The notes under the pieces are model-generated. The model had not been told where the DNA came from. It saw only the letters and a list, made by a program, of their open reading frames with translations, and ran no database searches. Shown here piece after piece: positions 19,360 through 64,000 of a DNA stretch of 64,000 nucleotides. The stretch is from assembly GCA_030324005.1 (NCBI GenBank), contig JARDVH010000073.1:43333943-43397942 (forward strand), given 5' to 3'. The stretch comes from Negaprion brevirostris (taxonomy: Eukaryota). The stretch's first letter is position 1. Each line of letters starts with the position of its first letter. The translations under genes were made by a program, and so were the position numbers.

Positions 19360-19907
19360 ATCATACTTTACAATCACCAAAATCAAGAGTATGTGTACGG
19401 CACATACTCTTGCAATTTGGCCAATGTTGTCTACCTGATACACTGCAGGAAAAGACACACAGTTTACAGAATTCCAATTAGAATGTGGGTCTTTACAGCT
19501 AATCTGCTATTCAAGTCTTAAAGGTGCAGACAATGTGGGTGGAGGTATCATTAAGCATAGGTTAAAGAGATGTGTATTGTCTCCAGACAGGACAGTAAGT
19601 GAGATGTTGCAAGTTCAGGCAAGGCATGGTACTTTGGGGAGACCATGCAGATGTTACGACAACGGATGAATGAACACCACTCGACAATCACCAGGCAAGA
19701 CTGTTCCCTTCCTGTTGGCGAATACTTCAGTGGTCATGGGCATTCAGCCTCTGATCTTCGGGTAAACGTTCTCCAAGGCGGCGTTCAAGACACACGACAG
19801 AGTTGCTGAGCAGAAACTGACCTCAACTGGGATCTTGGGTTCATGTCACACTACCTGTAATCCCCATGACTTGCCTGAACTTGCAACATCTCACTTACTG
19901 TCCTGTC
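19360..19907 (+). mobile_element. Penelope-like element relic: GIY-YIG endonuclease C-terminal region with an internal inverted segment
   Basis: GTYSCNLANVVYLIHCRK, then an interruption, then AWYFGETMQMLRQRMNEHHSTITRQDCSLPVGEYFSGHGHSASDLRVNVLQGG..RVAEQKL..LNWDLGFMSHYL*. The VVY...YFG/R/E/N pattern is GIY-YIG of the Penelope type. Confidence 0.85.
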
Positions 19908-49551: not shown

Positions 49552-49674
49552 CTTGACAGGATCGCTCATCTGTCAGCAGCTTGTAGCCTTTTCGACAACT
49601 GCACTCAAAGCTGCCAACCGTATTCCTACAGAAATGGTCACATCCGCCATTATTTACTAAGCACTCATCAATAT
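49552..49674 (-). CDS. SCUBE1: SCUBE1 coding exon, calcium-binding EGF-like repeat (EGF7 by human numbering)
   Basis: Minus strand reads ttacag|AT ATT GAT GAG TGC...TCC TGT CAA G|gtaagt; 123 nt, phase 1-1. Encodes (D)[40 protein letters not shown], nearly identical to vertebrate SCUBE1 as I recall it. Confidence 0.95.
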
Positions 49675-51290
49675 CTGTAAGTGGAGAAAGCATATAAGTG
49701 TAGAAGATATTAATACCAAATTCTGATATAAGCACATAGACAACATTTGAACCAGAAGTGGATTCATTCTGACAGCATTACCTCTCATTTTACATTATGT
49801 TCAACAAATATTTCCAGATGTAACAGGTATATTGTGGGGCCCACAATTTGCTATCTTCCACTGCTGTTTAGATTTCAGTGTACCAACAATAACTATTATT
49901 CAAAACTCATGATCACAATTTCAGGTTTCTAGCTCGAGACATTTTCCAAGTATAAATTCAGATTTCTGATCTGTCCAGACTGATAGAATGTTCCAGAACA
50001 TCTTTAGTGTGGTAGCTCAAAGGAAACCTGCCATCCCTATCCAGCATGGGATGTATATGCCTCTAACCTCACACCAAGGCAGTGGGCTCGCTCGCAAGCT
50101 GCTCAGTCAAACCAAACTTTTACTGGGAAACTGGCCAAGAGCAATAAATGCCTTGCAAGGGACACCCCACCTTGAGAATGATTTTCAAAAAATAATACAT
50201 GGTTAGGGGCGATACAGGAGACATTGTGGTAAGGATGCACAGCATTCTTCACTCACCCATTTATTATATACAGACCACTTTATTATCTGGTGTCTATTTA
50301 AGTTTCAATTGGATGAGAGAAGAAGTCATAAGTGCATTGAAAATTATTTACTTGGGTGTATTTATCTGGACCCTGAAAGGCATCATTCAGTTTACTTCAG
50401 ATTCCAAGACTAACTGTTAATTAATGAAGAGAATGGAGAAAAATTTGGATAAGGCCCAAAAACAGGTACAGGGTCATGATGTGAAAATCTGTCTGTTGTG
50501 ATGCTTTTCCTGCCTCCTTCACTGGAACACTTCCTTTTTCCAGACAATCAAGAATTGCTACTCGACCAGGCAGTGATGCAGGATTGTTTAAGTGCATGAG
50601 GAAGAAGAGATGATGATGATATGAAACTCCATCATTCAATCTCACAGCTCCTACCTCAGTATGTCATCAGTCGCCCTTCATTACAGCCACTTTGCCAGTG
50701 CCTTGACTGTTGCCATACATGCCAAAATGGTTCAGGCCTCAACAGATCCTTTAGGCCCAAAGGTGGTCAAATTTATCCTGTAATCTCTTCCACTGAAAAT
50801 CAGCACTTGTCATAGAATAGCACTGCATAGCAGCACTAGGCCAGGAAATGACATACAGAAGACAAGTGGTGAGGGAATTTGCAAGAGTGATTAGTTGACT
50901 TTTGTATGTAATATTGGATTTATTTCATATGGTTGGTTTAAAATGGTTGTTTTGTGGCTGATTTTATTTCAACATTAAGGTATTCATTAAGAAGTTGTTG
51001 CAATGGTCAGTGACAGTTTGATTAATACTAAATGGGGCATTGACATTTTCTGAACTGATACTGCAGCCAGGTGAGTCAGTTGTGGGCAGCCTGGCCAGAA
51101 AGGGGATGATGGTGACCTCCTCCCTTTCTCACTATACAACTGATGCAAAAGCTGCGCCCTCATGATGGCAATTTGTGCATTATACAGCAGCCCATGATGA
51201 ATTTTGACTTGTTCTAGCCAGATTATAGAGTTAATCCAGAACATTCTAGGCAACTGAGTCATTGCATTGGCATGCTGGTTGCCATTCCAT

Positions 51291-51437
51291 GAGGAGGCAG
51301 TGGTGTAGTTGTACTGTCACTGGACTAATAATCTAGAGAGTTTGGGTAATATTCTGGGGATTTGGGTACCTGTGGTAATTAAGGATGGGCAATAAATGCT
51401 GGTGTGGCTAGCGACACCCATATCCAATGAAAAAAAT
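51291..51437 (+). mobile_element. Internally deleted SINE (head fused to tail) of the 44665-45022 family
   Basis: ggcagtggtgtagttgtactgtcactggactaataatc head joined directly to ggtaattaaggatgggcaataaatgctgg..gcgacacccatatcc tail. Confidence 0.7.
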
Positions 51438-51639
51438 CAATGTGGCAGCAGCATTTTCATTATGTGTGTTGTCTACATGTGCTCAGCAAATTGCTCTTGT
51501 TGCTCAGTGTTCATCTTCTGGTTTGTTGTGCTGGCTTGTGATACAACATTGTAGTCAGTGACCAGGGGGTAGTAGGGACCAATTGGCTTCAGTCATCCCT
51601 TAGTTAGAAGGGAGTCCTGCTGGATCATGTGCTGGATGT

Positions 51640-52560
51640 CAGGCAACTTTGTGACAGTGGAGGCATTGAGAGAAGTGGTGGTGAGATAGAGCTAGGAGTT
51701 GATGACATACATGTGGAAACTGATGTTGTGTTTGTGAATACTGTTACTGACAAGCAGCACAAAGATGAACTCTATGGAGAGGGCAGGGGCAAGCACTGAC
51801 ATCTGAAGGAGCAAGAGTGCTGATGGTAAGAGGGGGAAGTTATTGTGGGTGATTATCTTCTATGATTATAGCGATCAGAACAGAACCTGGCAGGTGCAGT
51901 CCCACCAGCCTGATGTTGGAGGAGGATGTGGTCAATAAGATCACGGAGGATCAGATGTTCATGGAGGATTGAATTTAGTTTATCTTTGGTGGAAGGTGAA
52001 TCTGGTTTACCTTTGTTACAAATGCACAGGATGCCATTTGTAAATTTCATAAGAGCCATTTAAGTTCTTTGCTAGAGGTCGAAACCTGATGAATTCAGAC
52101 ATGGAGTTCCAGGAAAGATTGCTAAGAATTTGGGAAGTGACAACACATTCAAGGACTTTAGAGAGGAGGTGGGGAGTAGTTTACTAGGCTGAAGGCTTCA
52201 AGAGTCTTTTTTTGAGAGAGGGTTGATGGCAGCACATTTGAAGAAAGGAGGTTAAATCCCGAGAAAAAAGAATTGCTAACAATGTCAGCTGACATGTGAG
52301 CCAAGAGAGTAAGTTGGATGATCAGCATGTTAGTAGAAATAGGATCGAGAGAGAAGGAGGTGAGTCTCCTGTACGAGATGAGACCAGAGAATGTATGAGG
52401 TGACATAGGTGAAAAAGATACACGTCCAGGATTAGGGCAGAAACACCCTAAAGGGTATTTGACTGAGTGCACTGGAGGAAGGGAGGGATTTTGAAAGTCC
52501 ATTTAAATGAATTGCGGTAGAGTTTTTATTTCCAGGACAGAATGAAGCTAGATTTGGAGA
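51640..52560 (-). mobile_element. L2-clade LINE RT fragment
   Basis: SFSLDPISTNML..QL..LAHMSADIV..S; ALMKFTNGILCICNKGK; DLIDHILLQH. Confidence 0.7.
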
Positions 52561-55500
52561 GGGAATAAGGAAGCGAGCGGAGAGGGACTTTGCACATTGG
52601 AAGATATCAAAATGAGTAGGTCATTCATTCTCTCGAGCCTGTTCCACCACTAAATGTGACTGGATACAAAGAAAAGATCAAAGGTTGATACTGTGGGAGC
52701 ACTGAGGCCTTGTGAGATAGCAAGATCAAATGTATAGCTGTCTATATACATTTGAGACTTTATATATGTAGGGTGTGATCTGGGGAGGCTAAGAAGCTAG
52801 TGAGCTCATGAGAAGAGGGAACAAAATGAATTGAGATTAAAGATGAATTCACAAATTTGAGAAGTCACTCACTGCAGAGGCCATGGGATAAAGCAGTGAA
52901 GATAGCTCGGTGAGAAAATTGGCATGGTACTTTGGGAAGCAGTAGAGAATGAGGATCTTAAATGAGAGGTGAGAAGAGTAGAGCAAGGCAAAATGTTCAA
53001 AAGAGAAATTGCCAGAGGAGTAACAGGTGATTTAATAATAACACCCACACTGCCAAGTGACAGGCTAGTTGAAGTAAATGGTGGAAAGGTATAGCCAGGT
53101 AGGGAAGCATCTCCCCTCAGTCAGGTTTCTGTCAAGGCTATAATGTCAATTCAATTGTCCACAATAAGTTTTTGGGTGGCAATCTCACAAGTGAATGGAC
53201 ATTTGTTAGTTATGAGGTTTACAAGATTACTATATTTTGAAGTTGGTGACATCAGATTGTAAATATAGTGCTGTAGTCTGTCAATCTACTTCTAAGATGA
53301 AAAAGAGTTTGGACCAAGAATAGATAATTAGCATTTCAACCAGGACGCAAGGTTACTGTGTTTCACATTGCCATGGAGAACAGGGCAGAGGAAACTATCC
53401 CTGTGACCAGATTACAGACTCCCCTATAAATCAATGTATATCAAAGATAGACAACAGAAAGGTTGCTCGACTTTGCAAGTTACTGAAGTTAGTTCTGAGA
53501 AAGGGAGTGTGTCTCTGGTTGTAGAAACATGTCTAGCAACCTCCTATGGATTCCAGTAGATTTGTTCTGGCATAGCCAATGGAAAGAGGAATTACTTAAT
53601 TAGGTTCACTGCTGGCGGTGGATATAAGAAATTGTCTGAAAATGCCTGGAGACAGTCACTCAAAGTTACTACTTAGCGAAATGGGAATTCAGGAGTCCAT
53701 TGGAAGCTGGGAAACAACTGTGGACTGGTTGCTAAAAGAGCTGAAATTCCATTGCGACTTACAATGTGTGTCAACACAAAGAGACAAATATTCTGCTCTG
53801 TTGTTTAAAATGCAAGTTTTTTACAAAAAGAAAATAATCTTTCATCAATTATATATTTAGTCATTTGTTACAGTAAACATCTTTAAAATGTCAAATCTTT
53901 AAAATATCAAATCTTGATGTATCATTCTCCCAGCTTTTAACTGGAAGTTTGAATCTCTTTTAATAGTTATCAGTTTCAAAAGGACAATAACACATTGTGG
54001 ATGGCAACGTATAGAGGAACGTATAGAATTGACCTACTGTCTATTGACTTTTAAGATATAATTTCAACACTCGGACAAGTGGGGTTGACAGGGAGAAAAT
54101 TGGCGAGATCAGTGACCCCCCAGTCAGTGAGCTGGGTGGGAAATTGCAACAGAAAACTCAACATTTCTACAAACTCAGCACGAACCAGCAGAAACCAATC
54201 AACAACTAATCTAAGTAGCTGATGATCTCTTTAAATAACAGTGGTGGGGCTCTTTGCTGCTGCTGAATACATATTTGGCTATGTGTGTTTAGGAAGGTAT
54301 GTTCACTGGAGTCTTGAGGTTGGAAATGGCACCACTGAAGTCAGATCAATGTTACATACTCTGATATCACCTTCCCGATTGATATACTTTTAACACACAC
54401 ACCTAAAGCCCATGCTAACATCCTCGCCAAAATGGCATCCATCTTTTTCTGTGCCTGAAGTGTACGCATGTGGTGCAAATGCTATTTTGTGCCCAAGACT
54501 CTGCTGATAGCGCTGAAAATTTTGGTGTTACATAACTGAATTTTGTTACCAGGTTTTTTTTTTAAATGTGAAGATTTTTCCACTTTCTGACTGAAGATAA
54601 CACTGCAGTTAGTTTTCACTTTCCAGCCATACTGCGACTACTGGAATGTTTTGGGCTGTTATTAAAGTGTGATTTGATGAAGTATTTTTCAGAGAAGACA
54701 AAGTTCAAAGCAAAATTCTGAACTACATTGCTTATGCATCACTAATGGCAGACCTTTCCTTTCTGATCACCTTTTTGTGGCAATAAGTCGTTTACAATGA
54801 GATATTTGGATTGTTTCTTTTGCTCTGAAGGCAGAGAACTCTTCCCCCACCCAACTCCTGAAAGAACCTTTGCAGTATTACTGAGATACTGCTAGCTACT
54901 GGCACTCAAAACGCCTTTGGCTCAAAAGTATTTTGATGGGGAGTTAGAAACTGCTGCCTGTGTCAACTGATCAGATAGACAACCATATCTTTACATACTT
55001 TTGTGTCACATATGTCTACAGATCAGACTTTGTTTACTGATGTAAAAAAAATCAATGCCAATCATAGCTTGTTCACATAGATATTTGAAAGTCTGACTTT
55101 TAACATATATAATTAAGTGACAATTTGTCTATCCAGTATGTATGAGGCAATATATGGCTCCCAGACTGATTAAATACCAAGGTCACAGACCTGAACTGCT
55201 AGTAAGCCTTTAGAAATACTCTNNNNNNNNNNNNNNNNNNNNNNNNNNNNNNNNNNNNNNNNNNNNNNNNNNNNNNNNNNNNNNNNNNNNNNNNNNNNNN
55301 NNNNNNNNNNNNNNNNNNNNNNGCTTTTTTTTCCCTTCTCCGACTTTCCTTAAGGTTTCAGGAGTAGCAGTTACTCTCCTGTACTTTTTCCAAGTTACCG
55401 TCCTTCATATGTGAACGCTGGAAAGTATATCTCAGTAGGTTTTGCAAATGTAAGAAAGTTTTTCCTTCTTTTGCCTGCCCCCCACTCTTTTCTCCATTCC

Positions 55501-55844
55501 TCCCCTGAGATTGGCTCATGCTGATTCTGGCCATCAGTTATCTTTTTCAAATAGCTATTCTTCATGTATCAGCCTGGATCCTGTTTCCCTTAATGCACAA
55601 ATGTGTCAAGCATGGAGGTATCTAATATTAACCTTCTAAAGAACAAATCTTCATCGTAGCTTCGCAATTCTCTTCCCTTTTCAGTTCATGACTAATGGAA
55701 ATTCGAGGAGGAAATTTTCCTGGTCAATGATAGAGCAAGGCAGCAACCTTAAGTAACTCATTATCTGACTTCTCACTGCTCACTTGATAGTCAAAAATGA
55801 TATTGAGAAGGAAAACAGCAGCCAGTATGTGAGATCATTGTCAC

Positions 55845-56040
55845 TCCCAAGTTCCCACACCATGCTGATTTGGACATATATTGCAATTCCTTCACTGTTG
55901 GTGGGTCAAAATTCTATAGCTTCCCACCTAACAGCACTGTGGAAATATCTTCACCACAGATGCTGCAGCAGTTCAAAGAGAAGTTTACTATCATCTTCTC
56001 AGGGGTAATTAGGATTGACATAAGATAGCCACATACCGAC
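55845..56040 (+). mobile_element. 3' end of the CR1/L2-group LINE (partner of the 44665 SINE family)
   Basis: ttccttcactgttggtgggtcaaaattc..cctaacagcactgtgg...gcagcagttcaaag...cttctcaggggtaattagga. Confidence 0.6.
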
Positions 56041-56216
56041 GATATTTGTTTTTTGAAAAATGCGTTCAATAAAAGCTGGGATTGTATTTGCATCTGCAGT
56101 ATTTGAGGAACAAAAGTGAAACTCATGAGCAATTTGTTACCAAAATGTACTTTATGTGGCCAAACTATATATCCACAGCAAGCCCAATAAAACAAAAACT
56201 TTCTGCTCCTTCAAGA

Positions 56217-56430
56217 TGTGGAGATGTCAGCATTGGACTGGGGGTGGGCACAGTAAGAAGTCTCACAACGCCAGGTTAAAGTCCAACAGGTTTATTTGGT
56301 AGCACAAGCTTTCAGAGCACTACTCCTTCATCAAGTGACTCATCTGATGAAGGAACAGCACTCCGAAAGTTCATGCTACCAAATAAACCTGTTGGACTTT
56401 AACCTGACATTAAGAGACTTTTTACTGTGC
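56217..56430. mobile_element. Penelope-derived palindromic element: two inverted terminal-repeat copies carrying hammerhead motifs
   Basis: Arms 56248-56338 and 56340-56430 are ungapped reverse complements (76/91 identical by hand count). They are flanked by tgctc(c/t)ttcaaga at 56204-56216 and 56428-56440. Confidence 0.8.
56341..56375 (+). ncRNA. Minimal type I hammerhead-ribozyme motif (Penelope-type, degenerate)
   Basis: CAT-CTGATGA-A-GGAACAGCACTCC-GAAA-GT-TC-ATG: CUGANGA and GAAA core boxes, a GGA/UCC stem II, a CAU/AUG stem I and a vestigial stem III. Confidence 0.6.
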
Positions 56431-57609
56431 TCTTTCAAGAGTGCAGTTGGTAAATGCACAATTGATTGAGCACATCATATGATAAAAGAAGATTAGATGA
56501 TTGAGCCTGAATCTGCGTTAGATTGCTGATCTCGGCTGAGACACCAGTGGGGATACAGTTGTCCAATTGTCAGGGGTGTCCAACCTCTAACTCCTAGCAT
56601 CACTTACACTCCAAGCCTTAACATAAAAAACTGTTAACTTAAGCTGATAATTTATGCAGTTGTTATCCAAAGGGCACTCTATTCGTATGACTCAATGGCT
56701 TCAGAAGAAAAGGGAAGAAAACGCTTTTGAGAATTTAAATGAACAAAAACCATCAAATCTATTTTGAAATTAAAAATGTGCATTACTTTATCCTTGCATT
56801 AGTGAAAACGAAAAAAAAAACTTATGTTTTGTTGGAAGAATGTGTCCAAGTCATAGTGATTTTCAATAAACTATGCAGTACAACAAATATTAATTTTGTG
56901 ACAAAATAAACCACACTATTGTGGGAATTTTACCTAATATAGCTTGATTTGAGTGAGGAATTTTAATTGCAGTAGGAATTTGCTTGGATCCTATCTGTAC
57001 AAATGATGGTGAGTTAATATTAGTTTAGCTCTGACCTGATCAATTAAAATCAATGTGGCATTAGGAATGCTTTTAACTTGGCAAAGCATGTCTCCACAGA
57101 TTGGCACTTGTGGACTTTCACTCCACAAAAAACCAAAACTACCAAAGAGAAAATAATATAAATTCACATCACCTGGTGGCCATTGAGATTTTAAAAAATC
57201 ATTTTGCACACTACTAAAAATGATTGGCATTAGAAGTAATTTTCATTATCTTGACATTTAAAATTTATTGATTGCTTCCCCTTCAGTTAATCTTACAGCA
57301 ATGTAAGATTTTGATCTCCTTGGTGAATTGCAGGCCATTTGGATACAGGCTTTAATATATTTAGATTTATGGACAAGAGACCAATTTAATGGTCTTCCCT
57401 TTTCACAGTTCTTTAAAGTACCATCAATGATCCTCTGATTTGGTTTAGTATGGACAACAATTCAAGCAAGGAAGGGAGAGGGATGTTGGAGATGGCAGCA
57501 GTTTACAAGGAAAGAGGGGGGGAGGGAATTCTTTTTGAGCGGTGACAGCGGTGGTTTTGAAAGTGAGAGGCAAACCTCCAGAGAAGCAAGAATCTAATGG
57601 TCATTGAGA

Positions 57610-58800
57610 ACAGGAAACTTGCTGTCCTTACCCAGTCAGGCTGATACATGACCCAGGCCTACATCAACTCTTAGCTGTTCTCGGAAATGGCTTAGAAACT
57701 ACTTAATTGTATCAAGCCACTATGAAGAATAAAACTGGATGGACCACGGCTGCAATCTAGGCATCAAATTAGGATTGGATGAAAAGATGTCCAGTCGATT
57801 CTGTAAAATTCTCCTCACTAACATATGGTGTCTAAAGTTGGAAGAGCTATCCATACACTAGTTAAGCAATAGCCTAACATAGATATGATTCTGAGAGTAT
57901 AACCATCAAAATGTCACAGACTCTGCCATTGCCATTATTAGGTGCAGCCCATCAGGATGACACCACCTAAGATGGAACAAAATGGTATGTAGTCTGGTGG
58001 GAGTGACCTTGTTTAATATTCACTTAAGATTTCACGCAGTCTCATTGCATCAGGTCAAACATAGAAAATGAAACCTCCTGCTGATTACAATCTACTGCCT
58101 TCCCTCAGCTGATCATTCAGTACTCCTTCATGTTGAACACCACTTTAAAGAAGCAGGGGGTATCAAAAGCACAGGATGTAGTCTGGGTTGGCAACTTCAA
58201 AGTCTACCACCAAAAATGATTCATTAGCATCACAACTGGCCAAGTCCTGAAGTACACAGCTGCAAGATTGGACTTGCAGCAGGAAGTAAGAACACCAATG
58301 CAAGGGAAAAATCTAATTGACCTTGTCCTCTTCACAAATACCTGTCATAGAACATGACAATATTGGGAGGAGGGACCAATGCAGAGTCCTGGTGAAGGAG
58401 AAGTTCCAAAGTTGCACTGAGGAGATCTTTCATTATGCTGTGTGGTACTATCAATGTCACATTAATTAGATTGATTAAGACTAAATCTAACAGTTGAAAA
58501 CTGGGCATCATAATGTGCCACAGACCATAAGGACGATCAGAATTAATTATATTCCAGCATAATTTGTGAGGCATACGTATCAGTCCTTCATTAACCCAGA
58601 TGAAGTTATGAGGAAAGTAGATGAGCTCCAATCATGGATGTAAGAGCTGAAAGTGAAGTGAAAGGAACTGCCCTTGACTGCAATGCAGCGTTTGAGCATA
58701 AAACTAAAGTCATCACTGGGGAACAATTTAGTGGCTAGAAATATAATTGGCAAAAAAAAAAGATGGCTGTGGTTGATGGAGGCCTAACATCCGAGTTTTA
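57610..58800 (+). mobile_element. CR1/L2-group LINE 5' region with APE endonuclease remnants
   Basis: LLTNIW..KLEELSHTLVKQ*PNI..I; GNFKVYHQK; PMQGKNLIDLV: decayed APE motifs, preceded by a SINE-body-like 5' sequence. Confidence 0.6.
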
Positions 58801-59109
58801 CAAATGCAAGAGCTAAACTGAATGAAGAAATGGCCTAGGGCAGAAGAAACCCTGACTGGAAGGAATGGGGCAAGAAGCACCTGTTTAACATATGTTCTTA
58901 ATCTCAGTGCAATAGATAATACTGGAGCTCTTTTCAATGGAAAATGAGCTTAAGAAAGTGGAAAAGGTAAATAAAAGAAAAGCTTTTTGCAACATCTGGT
59001 GCAACTATGCTCATTTTTTAAAATCAGTTTATTTGTTTTCACATATAATTTTCCTCATTTTTAAAAAATTGTGTGGAAGGATTAGTAGACTGAGTGAACT
59101 TGTTGAACC

Positions 59110-59782
59110 ACAGCTTGTAGGCAACAAGTCTCAGAGTGGGACTTGTAACTGGTGCTTCTGGCTCAGGCAGGGGTGCTACCTAGTGAGGCACAAATTCTCA
59201 AGCTCAGAAATTTGGTTGACAGTGAGAAGGATAGTGACAGACTTCAGGAGGACTAAAAAAAATGATGAAATGGACAAACATAGGGCAGATTAAATTTGAT
59301 GTAGAGAACATACATTTTACCTGGAAAAATGAGGGAGGGGAGGCAATATGAACGAAACAGCACAAAGATTTGTTCTAACGGTACCAGAGATAAGGAACAT
59401 CAATCATGTGGAAAGATTGGAGAAGTGAAGTTATTCTCCATGAAACAGAGGAGATTAAGAGGAGACTTGATAGAGGCATTCAAGATCATGGGTGATTTTA
59501 GTAGAATAAATAAGATTAAACTATTACTAGTAGCAAGAGAGTCAATAGCCAGAGGATACAGTTTTAAAGCTAAAAGAGAATGTGAGGAAATTGTTTTTTA
59601 AACACAGCAAGTTGCTATCATCTGGGATGCACTGCCTGATGGAGCGATGGAAGTAAATTCAATGAAACATTCAAAAGAGAATTGAATAAATACTCAAAAG
59701 AAATACATTTGCAGGGATTGGTTGAATAACACTGCTGAAAAGAACTGGTGGAGACACTGCTGTACTGTATTGTTCTATGATT
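59110..59782 (+). mobile_element. CR1 LINE fragments and 3' end
   Basis: LFSMKQRRLRGDLIEAFKIM; tgggatgcactgcctgatggagcgatggaag; tail ttctatgattctatga. Confidence 0.75.
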
Positions 59783-62700
59783 CTATGAAAAAAACAAGGA
59801 TATGTTGGGAGACTTTTTTTGAATGAAGAAACTTATTAGGAATGCTCAACCAGAAATAATTTTGAAGCTGAATGGATATTAGCTTTGAAAAGAGAAGTGG
59901 ATAAACATTTGAAAAAGATTTAAATAATATAGAGAAAGGGCAGCAGAGCAGGTGCAATGGGCTGAATGGTCATCAGCTGTGAAATTCAACAAAATTCCTC
60001 CTATCTCCCAATGTAACATCAGTGAAAGGTCAGCAGGAATCCCTCAGAAGTAGCAGAAATGACCTTTTTTAAATACGTATTAACAAAGTGCATTAATACT
60101 GTACTGAGCCTCTACAGATAGTCTATGCTCATTAAACTATTTGATTAAAAAAATGGCAGACCTGATGCCAGGTCAGCGGTATCTCAAACTTTTCCAGGGA
60201 AAGTTTAATGGTTTCGATTGCTTGTGTACAAGATTATTTACAAGTAAAGCATAAAGACAGCCTTCATGTAGTATCATAATAACCTTGGAAAAAAATTCTA
60301 AGGTGGCAAAATACAGGCATTTGACTTCAGACCAAGGAGGCTTTTGCAGCTCTGACTTTCAGGAATACCAGAAAGATATTTGACCCTTGGTTCTCCCAGC
60401 TCAGAGCATAAGACTTGTTTGCTGATTTTGTTAGACGTGCATGGAAAAACAAGTTGTTCTGTACTTTCCATTTTGATGTCTTTACGACTAGACTTGCATT
60501 ACAGATTATGATCATAATCCTTACTTGATTGGCATCCTGTATTCTCGATTATGAAGTCAGTACAAAAGATTTCACTTCAGATCAGTATCAACACCTTTCA
60601 GGCACAAACCAGTCAAGGGCAAAATCATTCAGTAAATGGGTCAGAGGAGCTGCCTGGATGACTTGTAATCAGCGATCAACTTCTGAGTGAAATCATCAGT
60701 AATGAACATTTGATCAGCTGTTTATAAAATAAATTTTTTCGCAACAGGCACATACATACACATACCGGAACATTAAAGGAGTGACACGGAAATTGGGCAC
60801 AGAGGGGTACTTTAGAAACCGAAAAATATATTAATTCCCTACCAAAAACATGTCGCTATTTCTTAGTGATAAACAACCTGGAGCTAACCAAAGATCCATA
60901 CTTGTAGAACAAGCAAATATTTCCAAATGCAAGGTGCTGTTGAGAAAAAATTGAATCGTGGTAAATATTCCAAAGTGGTGATAACTGGAGGTGAAATTCT
61001 TGCCTTCAACAAGAAGAAAAATGTGACTAAAAAGGTAATAATCTCAAAATAATTTAAACAGAAAATGATGTCTAATTATCACTGCTAAGTAATGTGTTTA
61101 AAGTCAGCACTCTCCTAAAGGTCAAATACCAACATTTTTATAAAAATTAGACAGGAATTTCAGTCACTAGGTTATGAACTAATTAACCAAGTGTGATAAG
61201 AGGGCAAAATGCCAGCCTATGTGAGAGATAATTTCCTCTAGGTCACAAGGTCTAATAGCTGTTGCATAAAGACTCAGCAAGGTCAGAGTTTGATTGTTTG
61301 AGGTTTAAGGTCCCAAACTTTGATTTTCTCTCTCTTTAAGGTGCTTTAATAATACCATTGCTGACTGTAACATTCTCTGACATTACTGCCATTAATTAGA
61401 ATATCTGAGGTATGTTAAAACAACAGTTATCAATCATTTTAACTTAATCTCCTAAAAGATGCATGANNNNNNNNNNNNNNNNNNNNNNNNNNNNNNNNNN
61501 NNNNNNNNNNNNNNNNNNNNNNNNNNNNNNNNNNNNNNNNNNNNNNNNNNNNNNNNNNNNNNNNNNCATGACCCTGCAGTTCATTCAAAGATGTTCGGTT
61601 TCTTCCAGTTAAGATGGAAATTTGAACTGGTACAGCTGCTTTTTACGTAACTATTGCCTAAAAGTCTAATCTGAAAGAAATACTTAAACATAAAGGGAAA
61701 CAAAACACTTCACCCTAGTTAAGCTTTATTTCAAAAGGCACAGTGCATGGTGGAATTCAATCTGAAATGGACAGGCAAGCATGTTGAGGCCATTGGCACC
61801 CACAGTTACATTAAATTATCCGCATTTTGTGGAAGAACAGAAATTCAGGAAAAAAACAGATTTCCCACTCACTTTCCTCAATTCTGACACATCCCAAACT
61901 GATGACTGTGATCCTCCGGACCACAAAATCTACCCTTAAAAATAAAATGTAAAGAGTATGTAGCATCTGCCAATCAATGAAGAAGGTGAGTTAACTAAAT
62001 TAATTCAAATAACATTTCATGAATCTTATCAGCTGCTATACTTCGGGTGCTCATAGTGCTGAAAATAAGTTTTGCTGTATAATAACACCAAACAAAAAGT
62101 AGTAAAATTTCCAGGGAAAGGAAGTTGTGCAGTACAACTTCTTGTTTTTGAAGAATTTGTGTTACATGTCTTCAACTTGCCTTAAGTATTCTGTTAACTA
62201 TTGACTCCTATAACTAGTCAGTGTGCCTTACGTTCAGGAATATGCCCAAACTGACAATACCGAATTCTACAATAGCAAAACCAAAGGATGTAACACAGCA
62301 TAATCCAGGAGTTTAATTTTATTATCAAAGGGTGATCTGAACTGAGCATTGTCCTGGATCTTCCATTCAGTGATGAAGGAATACCCCTACAGTTTACCTC
62401 ATGGACGGCTGCACACAAAGATTTGACAAGTTTATGGCAGGGGATTTCCTGTCATTAGTGGCTTGATTTTCAATCAATGGTCAGGAATCTGAGACCCAGA
62501 TAATTTCCAGATCCTGCTCATCAAATNNNNNNNNNNATGTAAATGCCCTAATTTGGCTGTATGCGAGCTTGGTGCCCAGTTAATGATGCCTGAGAACTAG
62601 CAGCAGGTGGAAGTTGCCTGCAGACTACAAGTAGCCAAGACAGAAAATGGCCATAATGGGACCTGCCACTGCCTTGCAGAGTAAGTAGCACATCAGAGGG

Positions 62701-63559
62701 CCAGCAGTCTCACTCCACCTAATAACGGCCAATGAAAAGGTGCTATGATTGATTTTGAGCAAAATCCCCAGCACCAAAAATTTAGCATCATAAAAAAAAA
62801 TTACTTATGTGTCCCAGCATTGAACCTGACAGCTTATTGTGCATCAGATATGAATTGAAAGTGTCCTTTGTGCCCTCCCCAGCCCATTAACAAACTTTTC
62901 AAGGAGCTTAACAGACATATAAGTAGAGCTGAGTGGGCTCCCAACACCTCTCACCCCGCCTCACTTTGAAAGTTTCAACATGTCCCAGAGGCTTTGGGAC
63001 ACCAACACATCATCTGAGAGCTTATATTCACAACACACCCACTCCAGTTCCCATCCCCACCAGCAATTAAAAATATTAGCCCAGGATTGTTAGGAGCATA
63101 CCCCTTTAAGGTCAGGTGACCCAGGACACAAGTTCCATCCTGGATGGAGCTTGCCAAGCTAGTTTTGTGCTGACTATGCTAGAGAATTGATGTGTTAGTA
63201 AGCAGTTCCAGCTGATTTACTTCCACTTACCTCATGGTCTTTGACTGGTGCATATTCAATCTCATACATAGTAAGGGTGTCTTTTTTAATTCATTTGTAG
63301 GATGATCACCTTTATTGATTTGGGATCTACAGCTAGCTTTGGCATAGTCTAATTCAGCAAAGGCATTAGCATACAGCTTCTTGGTTTACAACTGATATGA
63401 GAGTGTGAGCAGGATGATGCATCTAATCTATCAAAACAAGAATTTCTAGCTGAAGGGACCCTGACCAGGATCAGAATGGTTGAACTGTACATGAAATAGT
63501 ATGACAGCAGTAACCACAGGAATGAAGTGGAGATCTGGGAAGGCTAATCTCCAGGTCCT

Positions 63560-64000
63560 TCACTTTTACTTAGAGATTCTGCTGTGGGTTCTGAGGGACT
63601 GCAGGAGGTGATATTTCCGAGAAGAAATAAACCAGCATCTCACACTAAGCAGATGAACATGACTGTGGATGAATGAGATGAATACATTTAAAATAAGAAA
63701 AGAAAATGTATTGAATAAATTAAACAAATTCTGTGATAAAATCCGTGGTCTAGATGGATTGCAGCACATATTTAAAATAATCTAGGGAAGGGATAGCAGA
63801 GGCATTACTACACATTTAATTCAGTAATTTGTTAGGAAAATGGTGTAGTGCCAGCGACAGAGGACTGGCAGATAACTAATATAATGCTTATATTTAAGAA
63901 GGGGTCAGAACATGTCTATGGATTTACAGACCAGTCAGTTTAAAATTGGTGGTATGAGAAATGGTATTAAAGCAGAGAGAACATCTAGAAAAAAAATACT
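63560..64000 (+). mobile_element. CR1 LINE RT N-terminal fragment (runs off the window end)
   Basis: gataaaatccgtggtctagatgg (K.PG.DG-like), gaggactggcagataactaat (EDW..N), tacagaccagtcagttta (YRPVSL). Confidence 0.7.

Follow-up and report, generated by a model that had tools for sequence, protein, structure and literature searches.

Head-to-head ends of a Penelope-like element form a ribozyme-bearing palindrome in a SCUBE1-like intron of Negaprion brevirostris

Introduction

An intron of a SCUBE1-like gene in the shark Negaprion brevirostris carries a palindrome whose two strands each bear a hammerhead-like ribozyme core. The locus raises the question of what this palindrome is: a small mobile unit that is copied as a whole, a structure kept by its host, or the ends of a larger element that were inserted facing each other. 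A first-pass annotation, made from the letters alone, had proposed a discrete unit (MITE- or retrozyme-like) mobilised by Penelope enzymes. Here we analyse the palindrome in its window, by which we mean the whole stretch of 64,000 nucleotides (GCA_030324005.1, contig JARDVH010000073.1, positions 43,333,943 to 43,397,942), together with members of its family in the same genome.

We conclude that the palindrome is very probably an old insertion of two short, head-to-head, ribozyme-bearing ends of an abundant shark Penelope-like element (PLE), likely assembled in place by the enzyme that the element encodes and not copied ready-made. Its two arms match the ends of that element, the tail sits on one side only, a target duplication flanks the pair, and the junction between the arms varies genome-wide. 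The locus itself is a decayed and ordinary repeat; its value lies in the family as a mechanistic dataset. For the head-to-head repeats and one-sided tails of PLEs, the portions of the literature available to us leave the choice open between antisense self-priming (PMC3846280) and cleavage of both strands combined with two start sites (PMC11167929). Thousands of independent minimal insertions in a shark genome offer statistics that separate such models, and these point to an exact 127-nt leader RNA.

Results

Anatomy of the palindrome

Recomputation reproduced the palindrome as first described: the arms at 56248-56338 and 56340-56430 are ungapped reverse complements about a centre base at 56339, identical at 76 of 91 positions and with a longest perfect run of 33 nt. 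The two oppositely oriented hammerhead-like cores are present as they had been written. The direct repeat that had been read as a target-site duplication is also there (12/13; the flanking 13-mers differ by one base), and across the family duplications of at least 9 nt (median 12 nt) flank 70 of 136 pairs of facing arms versus 5 of 136 shuffled controls. The palindrome is asymmetric: an extra ~36 nt, the Penelope 'tail', extends the left arm and is lacking from the right one. The long arm's +121 is the position of the ORF start codon, which reads TTG in the local copy. All features are collected in Table 1, where element coordinates are counted from the hammerhead C3 (C3 = 0). A second high-copy repeat fragment (very high contig depth) lies just upstream of the palindrome, at window positions 55842-56012.

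The perfect run is nothing special. Runs of at least 30 nt are found in 11 of 57 palindromes and in 11% of random cross-locus arm pairs, so that the 33-nt run is typical of the family. Special homogenisation of the local arms was considered as well and rejected.

Table 1. Features of the palindrome and its host intron (window positions; element coordinates relative to C3)
Feature	Position	Strand	Remarks
Left target-site duplication copy	56204..56216	+	last 5 nt overlap the long-arm end (microhomology, 4/5 to family end)
Long arm, Penelope-like pLTR/5' leader, -4 to +121	56212..56338	-	89% identity to family 3' region
Penelope 'tail', ~36 nt, on long arm only	56212..56247	-	two family 3'-end classes
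Decayed minimal hammerhead, SCUBE1 sense strand	56303..56337	-	C3 -> U; stem I 3/3, stem II 5/5 pairs (G-U counted)
Head-to-head junction of two 5' ends	56335..56343	.	9-nt spacer between cores; one-base arm overlap at 56338
Short arm, -6 (putative transcript start) to +87, tail absent	56338..56431	+	87% identity to family 3' region
Decayed minimal hammerhead	56341..56375	+	core letters intact; stem II 3/5 pairs; helix III palindrome broken (AGUU for AGCU)
Right target-site duplication copy	56428..56440	+	first 3-4 nt overlap the short-arm end
Host intron, SCUBE1-like gene	49676..64000, continuing past the window	-	~24 kb; tblastn of SCUBE1 protein

The arms are ends of an autonomous Penelope-like element

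Sequence followed upstream from single arms enters a reading frame that encodes a VVYLIRC..WYIG motif. Among 30 loci chosen for the coding region, 20 have a sense arm ~225 nt after the endonuclease region (several among the remaining ten being short contigs); among 30 loci chosen for the ORF N-terminus, again 20 have an arm directly upstream of the ORF, ending at +120/+121 on the ATG. Since the arm both follows the endonuclease ORF and abuts the ORF start, one and the same sequence makes up the element's 3' end and its ORF leader. The Penelope origin that had been suggested for the palindrome is thereby confirmed, with the arm linked to the RT-endonuclease ORF at both ends.

The longer homologs are mostly from sharks, and two of them have an RT domain above the Pfam cut-off. 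The GIY-YIG match to Pfam is below threshold in one homolog (E 0.15), three genomic fragments had no Pfam match, and the PLE protein had no match in PDB; the assignment as a putative endonuclease was made from the VVYLIRC..WYIG motif, which is C-terminal. Between the RT and the endonuclease there is a CX4CXXC linker (a PCHSNLCKTC-type motif). According to the available text of PMC8557442, a CX2-5CXXC linker defines Neptune and is shared with Nematis, and by this motif the element would be Neptune-like (Neptune or Nematis). The features of Penelope (EN+) elements were found: a sequence belonging to the terminal repeat of an RT + GIY-YIG ORF, a one-sided tail of 30-40 nt, and 5' truncation with an inverted copy and a target duplication. 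The palindrome belongs to, and works like, the inverted-pLTR insertions of EN+ Penelope elements, and so is of a known kind.

The literature search turned up no paper on these palindromes or on the shark family that they belong to. Repbase and Dfam, outside the scope of that search, may well catalogue the family. A preprint that covers one cartilaginous fish in its available part (bioRxiv 10.64898/2026.07.22.740005) may list the shark repeat in its supplements.

Several variants were seen on the way. ORF-linked copies form a subfamily with a ~7-nt insert just after the hammerhead cut site, which alters stem I (within L070-L119 and L285-L314), and three further subfamily types differ at +32/+34. 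At three loci (L290, L308 and L312) an inverted tail-only piece (~+80 to +121) stands directly before a 5'-truncated ORF start. Pieces of the endonuclease region are also contained in annotated shark proteins (septin 5a, XRCC5, PPP1R12A-like, USP8 and NOXP20-like), where they are either exonised or mis-annotated.

Palindromes are abundant and apparently made independently

The family is very large. A search of its own genome with the whole unit gave 4,763 preliminary candidates, of which 40 were scored, and a 28-mer from one arm has 17,989 exact matches (control: 0). We took the first 90 of these 28-mer loci in position order, excluding those already examined or adjacent and dropping one duplicate: among the resulting 89 arms, 39 are head-to-head, 33 single, 13 at assembly gaps and four reach the ORF. 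In 40 unselected stretches of 10 kb (322 kb once N is excluded) there are 14 arms and four pairs, which extrapolates to roughly 10^5 arms and 10^4 pairs in the genome.

A pattern of two facing cores matches 972 pairs (control: 1). The 9-nt centre spacing of our locus is shared by 146 of these 972 pattern-matched pairs, and 18 different spacer lengths were counted by hand among the first 50 pattern matches listed (two of which do not resemble the element). A short head-to-tail pattern, with 31 fixed bases stricter than the 20-base palindrome pattern, has two matches genome-wide. At G000:C121:42482774-42482871 the hammerhead region is duplicated head-to-tail over a short length, a rare arrangement of a kind that in principle could form a dimeric ribozyme.

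If palindromes were inherited as units, left and right arms should form their own lineages, and this is not what the distances show. For 66 pairs spanning both cores, the distance is 0.160 between long arms, 0.171 between short arms and 0.166 across loci; 64.5 of 132 arms have their nearest neighbour among arms of their own type (long or short), equal to chance, so there are no separate long-arm and short-arm (left/right) lineages. The partner arm is the nearest neighbour for only 3.5 of 132 arms, and arms within a locus are at a distance of 0.148 as compared with 0.166 across loci (0/1000 permutations, same 66 pairs). Ten pairs with the 9-nt spacer include three subfamily types, and their short arms end anywhere from +80 to +90; they are at a distance of 0.160 from each other versus 0.164 from other pairs. 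Given the varied junctions, the three subfamilies, the lack of arm lineages and the few tandems, each palindrome looks independently made.

It is thus highly improbable that the palindrome is a discrete non-autonomous element (MITE- or retrozyme-like) copied whole by Penelope enzymes, as had been proposed. The 9-nt centre does recur, the top 30 whole-unit matches are all alike, and target duplications flank entire pairs; however, those top matches were selected by their likeness, the spacers are diverse, the distance among the 9-nt copies is about that to other pairs, and arms show no type-specific kinship. The first-pass annotation had expected the copies of such a family to share one centre junction; this expectation largely fails, as the junctions vary. 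A MITE-like element is rejected on account of non-uniform length, ends that are not fixed and the absence of unit inheritance (spacers, lineages and distances), and a non-LTR retrozyme because the arms are head-to-head and short tandems are nearly absent.

How the pairs may be built

The fetched loci together gave 138 pairs, 110 of which can be classified once 28 unclassifiable ones are left out: 97 consist of a long and a short arm, six of two long arms and seven of two short arms. Long+short pairs also prevail in the sets not selected for palindromy (position-ordered plus random; 32 of 36 pairs, p = 2e-6). The 3' ends of the arms fall into two classes ~37 nt apart, at ~+78 to +88 and ~+114 to +121, and the +82 end is shared by single and ORF-bearing copies. 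The subfamily marks at +32/+34 agree between the two arms in 75 of 80 pairs (chance 0.41; only pairs with both arms of the three types were used, and those with other letters excluded). Out of the 97 long+short pairs, the short arm extends at least 10 nt further 5' in 29, so that neither arm contains the other, the long arm does so in 13, and the two ends are within 10 nt of each other in 55; for 21 of the 29 non-nested pairs the junction gap is at most 10 nt. Some junctions hold short re-copied pieces.

The 5' ends are not random either: 30 of the 82 located within -25 to +31 are at -8 to -3 (8.6 expected, p = 4e-10). This peak includes 20 of 53 inverted arms versus 10 of 62 arms without a partner, and joining chemistry may add to it, given the weaker peak in the unpartnered arms. 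The hammerhead cut site has three 5' ends out of 82, where 7.2 are expected. Ribozyme-cut RNA as the template was also considered, on the basis of a peak at +24 to +36; the peak is an alignment artefact of the subfamily insert, gone when both references are used.

Of 75 longer copies, 42 have a TATA-like box, in 41 cases 31-32 nt upstream of A(-6), and the pattern is absent from the other 33. A(-6) sits in the context TCCACT, which we take to fit the initiator consensus. One ORF-bearing copy (L293) starts exactly at -6. The base before -6 is mostly C in unpartnered arms (C 39, G 4, A 3, T 3) and in otherwise unexplained inverted junctions (C 19, G 7, A 1, T 0), where several Gs may have been copied again from the partner arm; an extra non-templated (cap-copy) G is not clearly seen before -6 in arms without a partner. 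From DNA features of this kind we infer a transcript start at -6.

Pairs of this anatomy could be made as follows. The endonuclease would nick both target strands ~12 nt apart; reverse transcription would be primed from one nick at the start codon (+121) and from the other ~37 nt upstream (+82), with the same RNA, or RNAs of the same subfamily, serving as template for both, and the two cDNAs would be joined at their ends, head-to-head. We regard this two-nick, two-site priming with head-to-head joining as the probable route. With priming at the 5' copy of the tail, synthesis would run to the end of the template at the transcript start, which lies six bases ahead of the hammerhead core, and that is a reasonably likely origin of the tiny arms.

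The inverted arm might instead have been self-primed, by the first cDNA (or an antisense transcript) folding back on itself; this is compatible with our main conclusion and concerns the step of joining and priming just described. Folding back accounts for the head-to-head geometry and for the matching marks, has been proposed for rotifer Penelope elements (in the available part of PMC3846280), and is in line with the re-copied pieces at some junctions and with the 55 of 97 long+short pairs whose 5' ends nearly coincide. We consider it rather unlikely, however, as each arm holds sequence that the other lacks in the 29 non-nested pairs (21 of them with hardly any gap), and as the +82 end, closing single and ORF-bearing copies too, acts like a site of priming. 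Against the two-nick reading, varied and non-nested junctions could also result from deletions that hit palindrome centres later.

A stricter form of the two-nick route would have one enzyme dimer use two fixed sites of a single RNA to prime both nicks, copy the leader up to the transcript start and fuse the cDNAs. We hold it only tentatively, with the balance slightly against it. Two points count against both forms of the route: matching marks could also arise if a single subfamily were active at any one time, with no need for one RNA, and PAc, the Poseidon element of the green anole, showed no difference in start sites between the strands in vitro (available text of PMC11167929), which predicts random rather than long+short pairing. 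If single-RNA dual priming is true, it would have seeded about ten thousand ready-made intronic hairpins in the shark genome, and would explain head-to-head repeats and one-sided tails without an antisense template.

Comparison with known systems

One close match is with the Neptune-type GIY-YIG PLEs, as far as they are described in the available portions of PMC8557442 and PMC3846280: a single RT-EN ORF, a CX4CXXC linker, a pLTR, 5' truncation, an inverted truncated 5' copy, a tail of 30-40 nt at one end and a target duplication of ~10 nt are all shared. A TATA box and an initiator are noted in the pLTR of rotifer PLEs in the same sources. In contrast to these elements, the shark insertion, whose clade is assigned by motif, is made up only of two leader-length arms without coding sequence, and the shark pairs are very numerous (four in 322 kb of unselected sequence). 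The promoter of D. virilis Penelope is internal and TATA-less (PMC2377424, in the part available), and therefore the promoter type is not universal.

The PAc protein cuts and extends both strands, and two internal start sites bound the tail; uncleaved RNA is its main template, and hammerhead cleavage is unneeded for insertion (all from the available text of PMC11167929). The shark family likewise has two putative start sites bounding the tail, and its 5' ends are not enriched at the cut site (3/82). The start sites of PAc, however, lie inside the ORF, which begins within the ribozyme, whereas in the shark the leader contains the entire ribozyme and the putative distal start site coincides with the start codon; no long+short bias is reported for PAc in that text.

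As in metazoan PLE hammerheads (PMC4209133, available part), the shark arms combine CUGANGA/GAAA cores with a short stem I, one additional base ahead of stem II and a palindromic AGCU at helix III. Hammerheads on opposite strands are found 100-700 bp apart in Schistosoma according to the same text, but the shark cores are only 9 nt apart, with a stem II of 5 bp versus 7-8 bp. The non-LTR retrozymes (as presented in the accessible part of bioRxiv 10.64898/2026.07.22.740005) are similarly non-coding, derived from Penelope pLTRs and equipped with a type I hammerhead; they are head-to-tail with two ribozymes on the same strand, whereas the shark arms are head-to-head with one per strand.

Ribozyme, host gene and age

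Among 271 arms collected with a motif allowing seven substitutions, each core position has the expected base in the majority (lowest for G12, 183/271), so the minimal type I hammerhead recognised at the locus holds for the family majority. Core, stems and cleavage triplet are all kept in 40 of 221 insert-free arms. The suggested check of the core against hammerhead models came out in two ways: the family majority fits core and stems, whereas Rfam returned no hammerhead family for the locus at E <= 10, its best match being a sub-threshold microRNA hairpin. The CAU/AUG and CAC/GUG versions of stem I do not amount to covariation in the family (odds ratio 0.98, p = 1.0); CAU/AUG is the product of two independent changes. 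Both local copies are degraded as had been observed (C3U on the minus strand; stem II and AGCU on the plus strand; see Table 1).

The host gene is SCUBE1-like and on the minus strand. A tblastn search with SCUBE1 protein over the window and the next 120 kb placed one exon at 49553-49675, with 95% identity to SCUBE1 of a bird, and the exon before it ~10 kb past the end of the window; these exons bracket the site, and the palindrome is therefore intronic. Its minus-strand RNA is predicted to fold at -139.3 kcal/mol (z = -15.9; 0/200 shuffles equally stable), and the hairpin in the SCUBE1 intron stands as first described. So does the predicted competition between hairpin and ribozyme: imposing the hammerhead fold carries a penalty of 38 kcal/mol for the minus and 31 kcal/mol for the plus strand. 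One transcript of the locus carries a single motif, the two copies being on opposite strands. With opposite strands, mutations in both copies and a hairpin that outcompetes the ribozyme fold, both local hammerheads are predicted to be inactive, and the hammerhead appears to be a passenger in the insertion.

Two contigs of a relative differ from the locus at 13/741 and 22/~820 bases. One bridges the right junction of the palindrome (the contig on the left extends only 29 nt into the arm), and the insertion therefore predates that split. Four runs of contigs showed no empty site, though none of the contigs spans the whole stretch. The arms diverge from the family majority at 6/74 and 10/74 sites, next to a family mean of 10.6%, and five further stretches of the same family lie within the 184 kb around the locus (window plus next 120 kb).

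Could the hairpin or ribozyme have been retained because it acts on SCUBE1 RNA, through editing, a small RNA or cleavage? The hairpin is predicted to be very stable on the sense strand, the right junction is common to a relative whose flanks are 2-3% different, and Penelope repeats of a lizard are heavily A-to-I edited (available part of PMC5625713). Such a role is nevertheless very unlikely: the divergence of the arms and their perfect run are those of an ordinary family member, stem I does not covary, C3 is lost on the very strand that is transcribed with SCUBE1, the ribozyme fold is costly there, and five further stretches of the family lie nearby. Editing of the palindrome RNA would be plausible by the lizard precedent (same source), and the shark palindromes may be a large source of putative intronic double-stranded RNA.

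Two minor observations were made in the window. An insertion of the same family is found at 19451-19905 of the window, with the end of the endonuclease ORF at 19624-19854 (+) and an inverted pLTR piece in front of it, at 19451-19629 (-). The antisense strand of the family reads CAG/GTGAGT, similar to the splice-donor consensus; at 56335-56352 on the minus strand, the SCUBE1-sense version reads CAG/ATGAGT, so that the donor is lost, and the same change makes stem I CAU. This donor-losing variant (T at -1) is common, being found in 33 of 221 arms.
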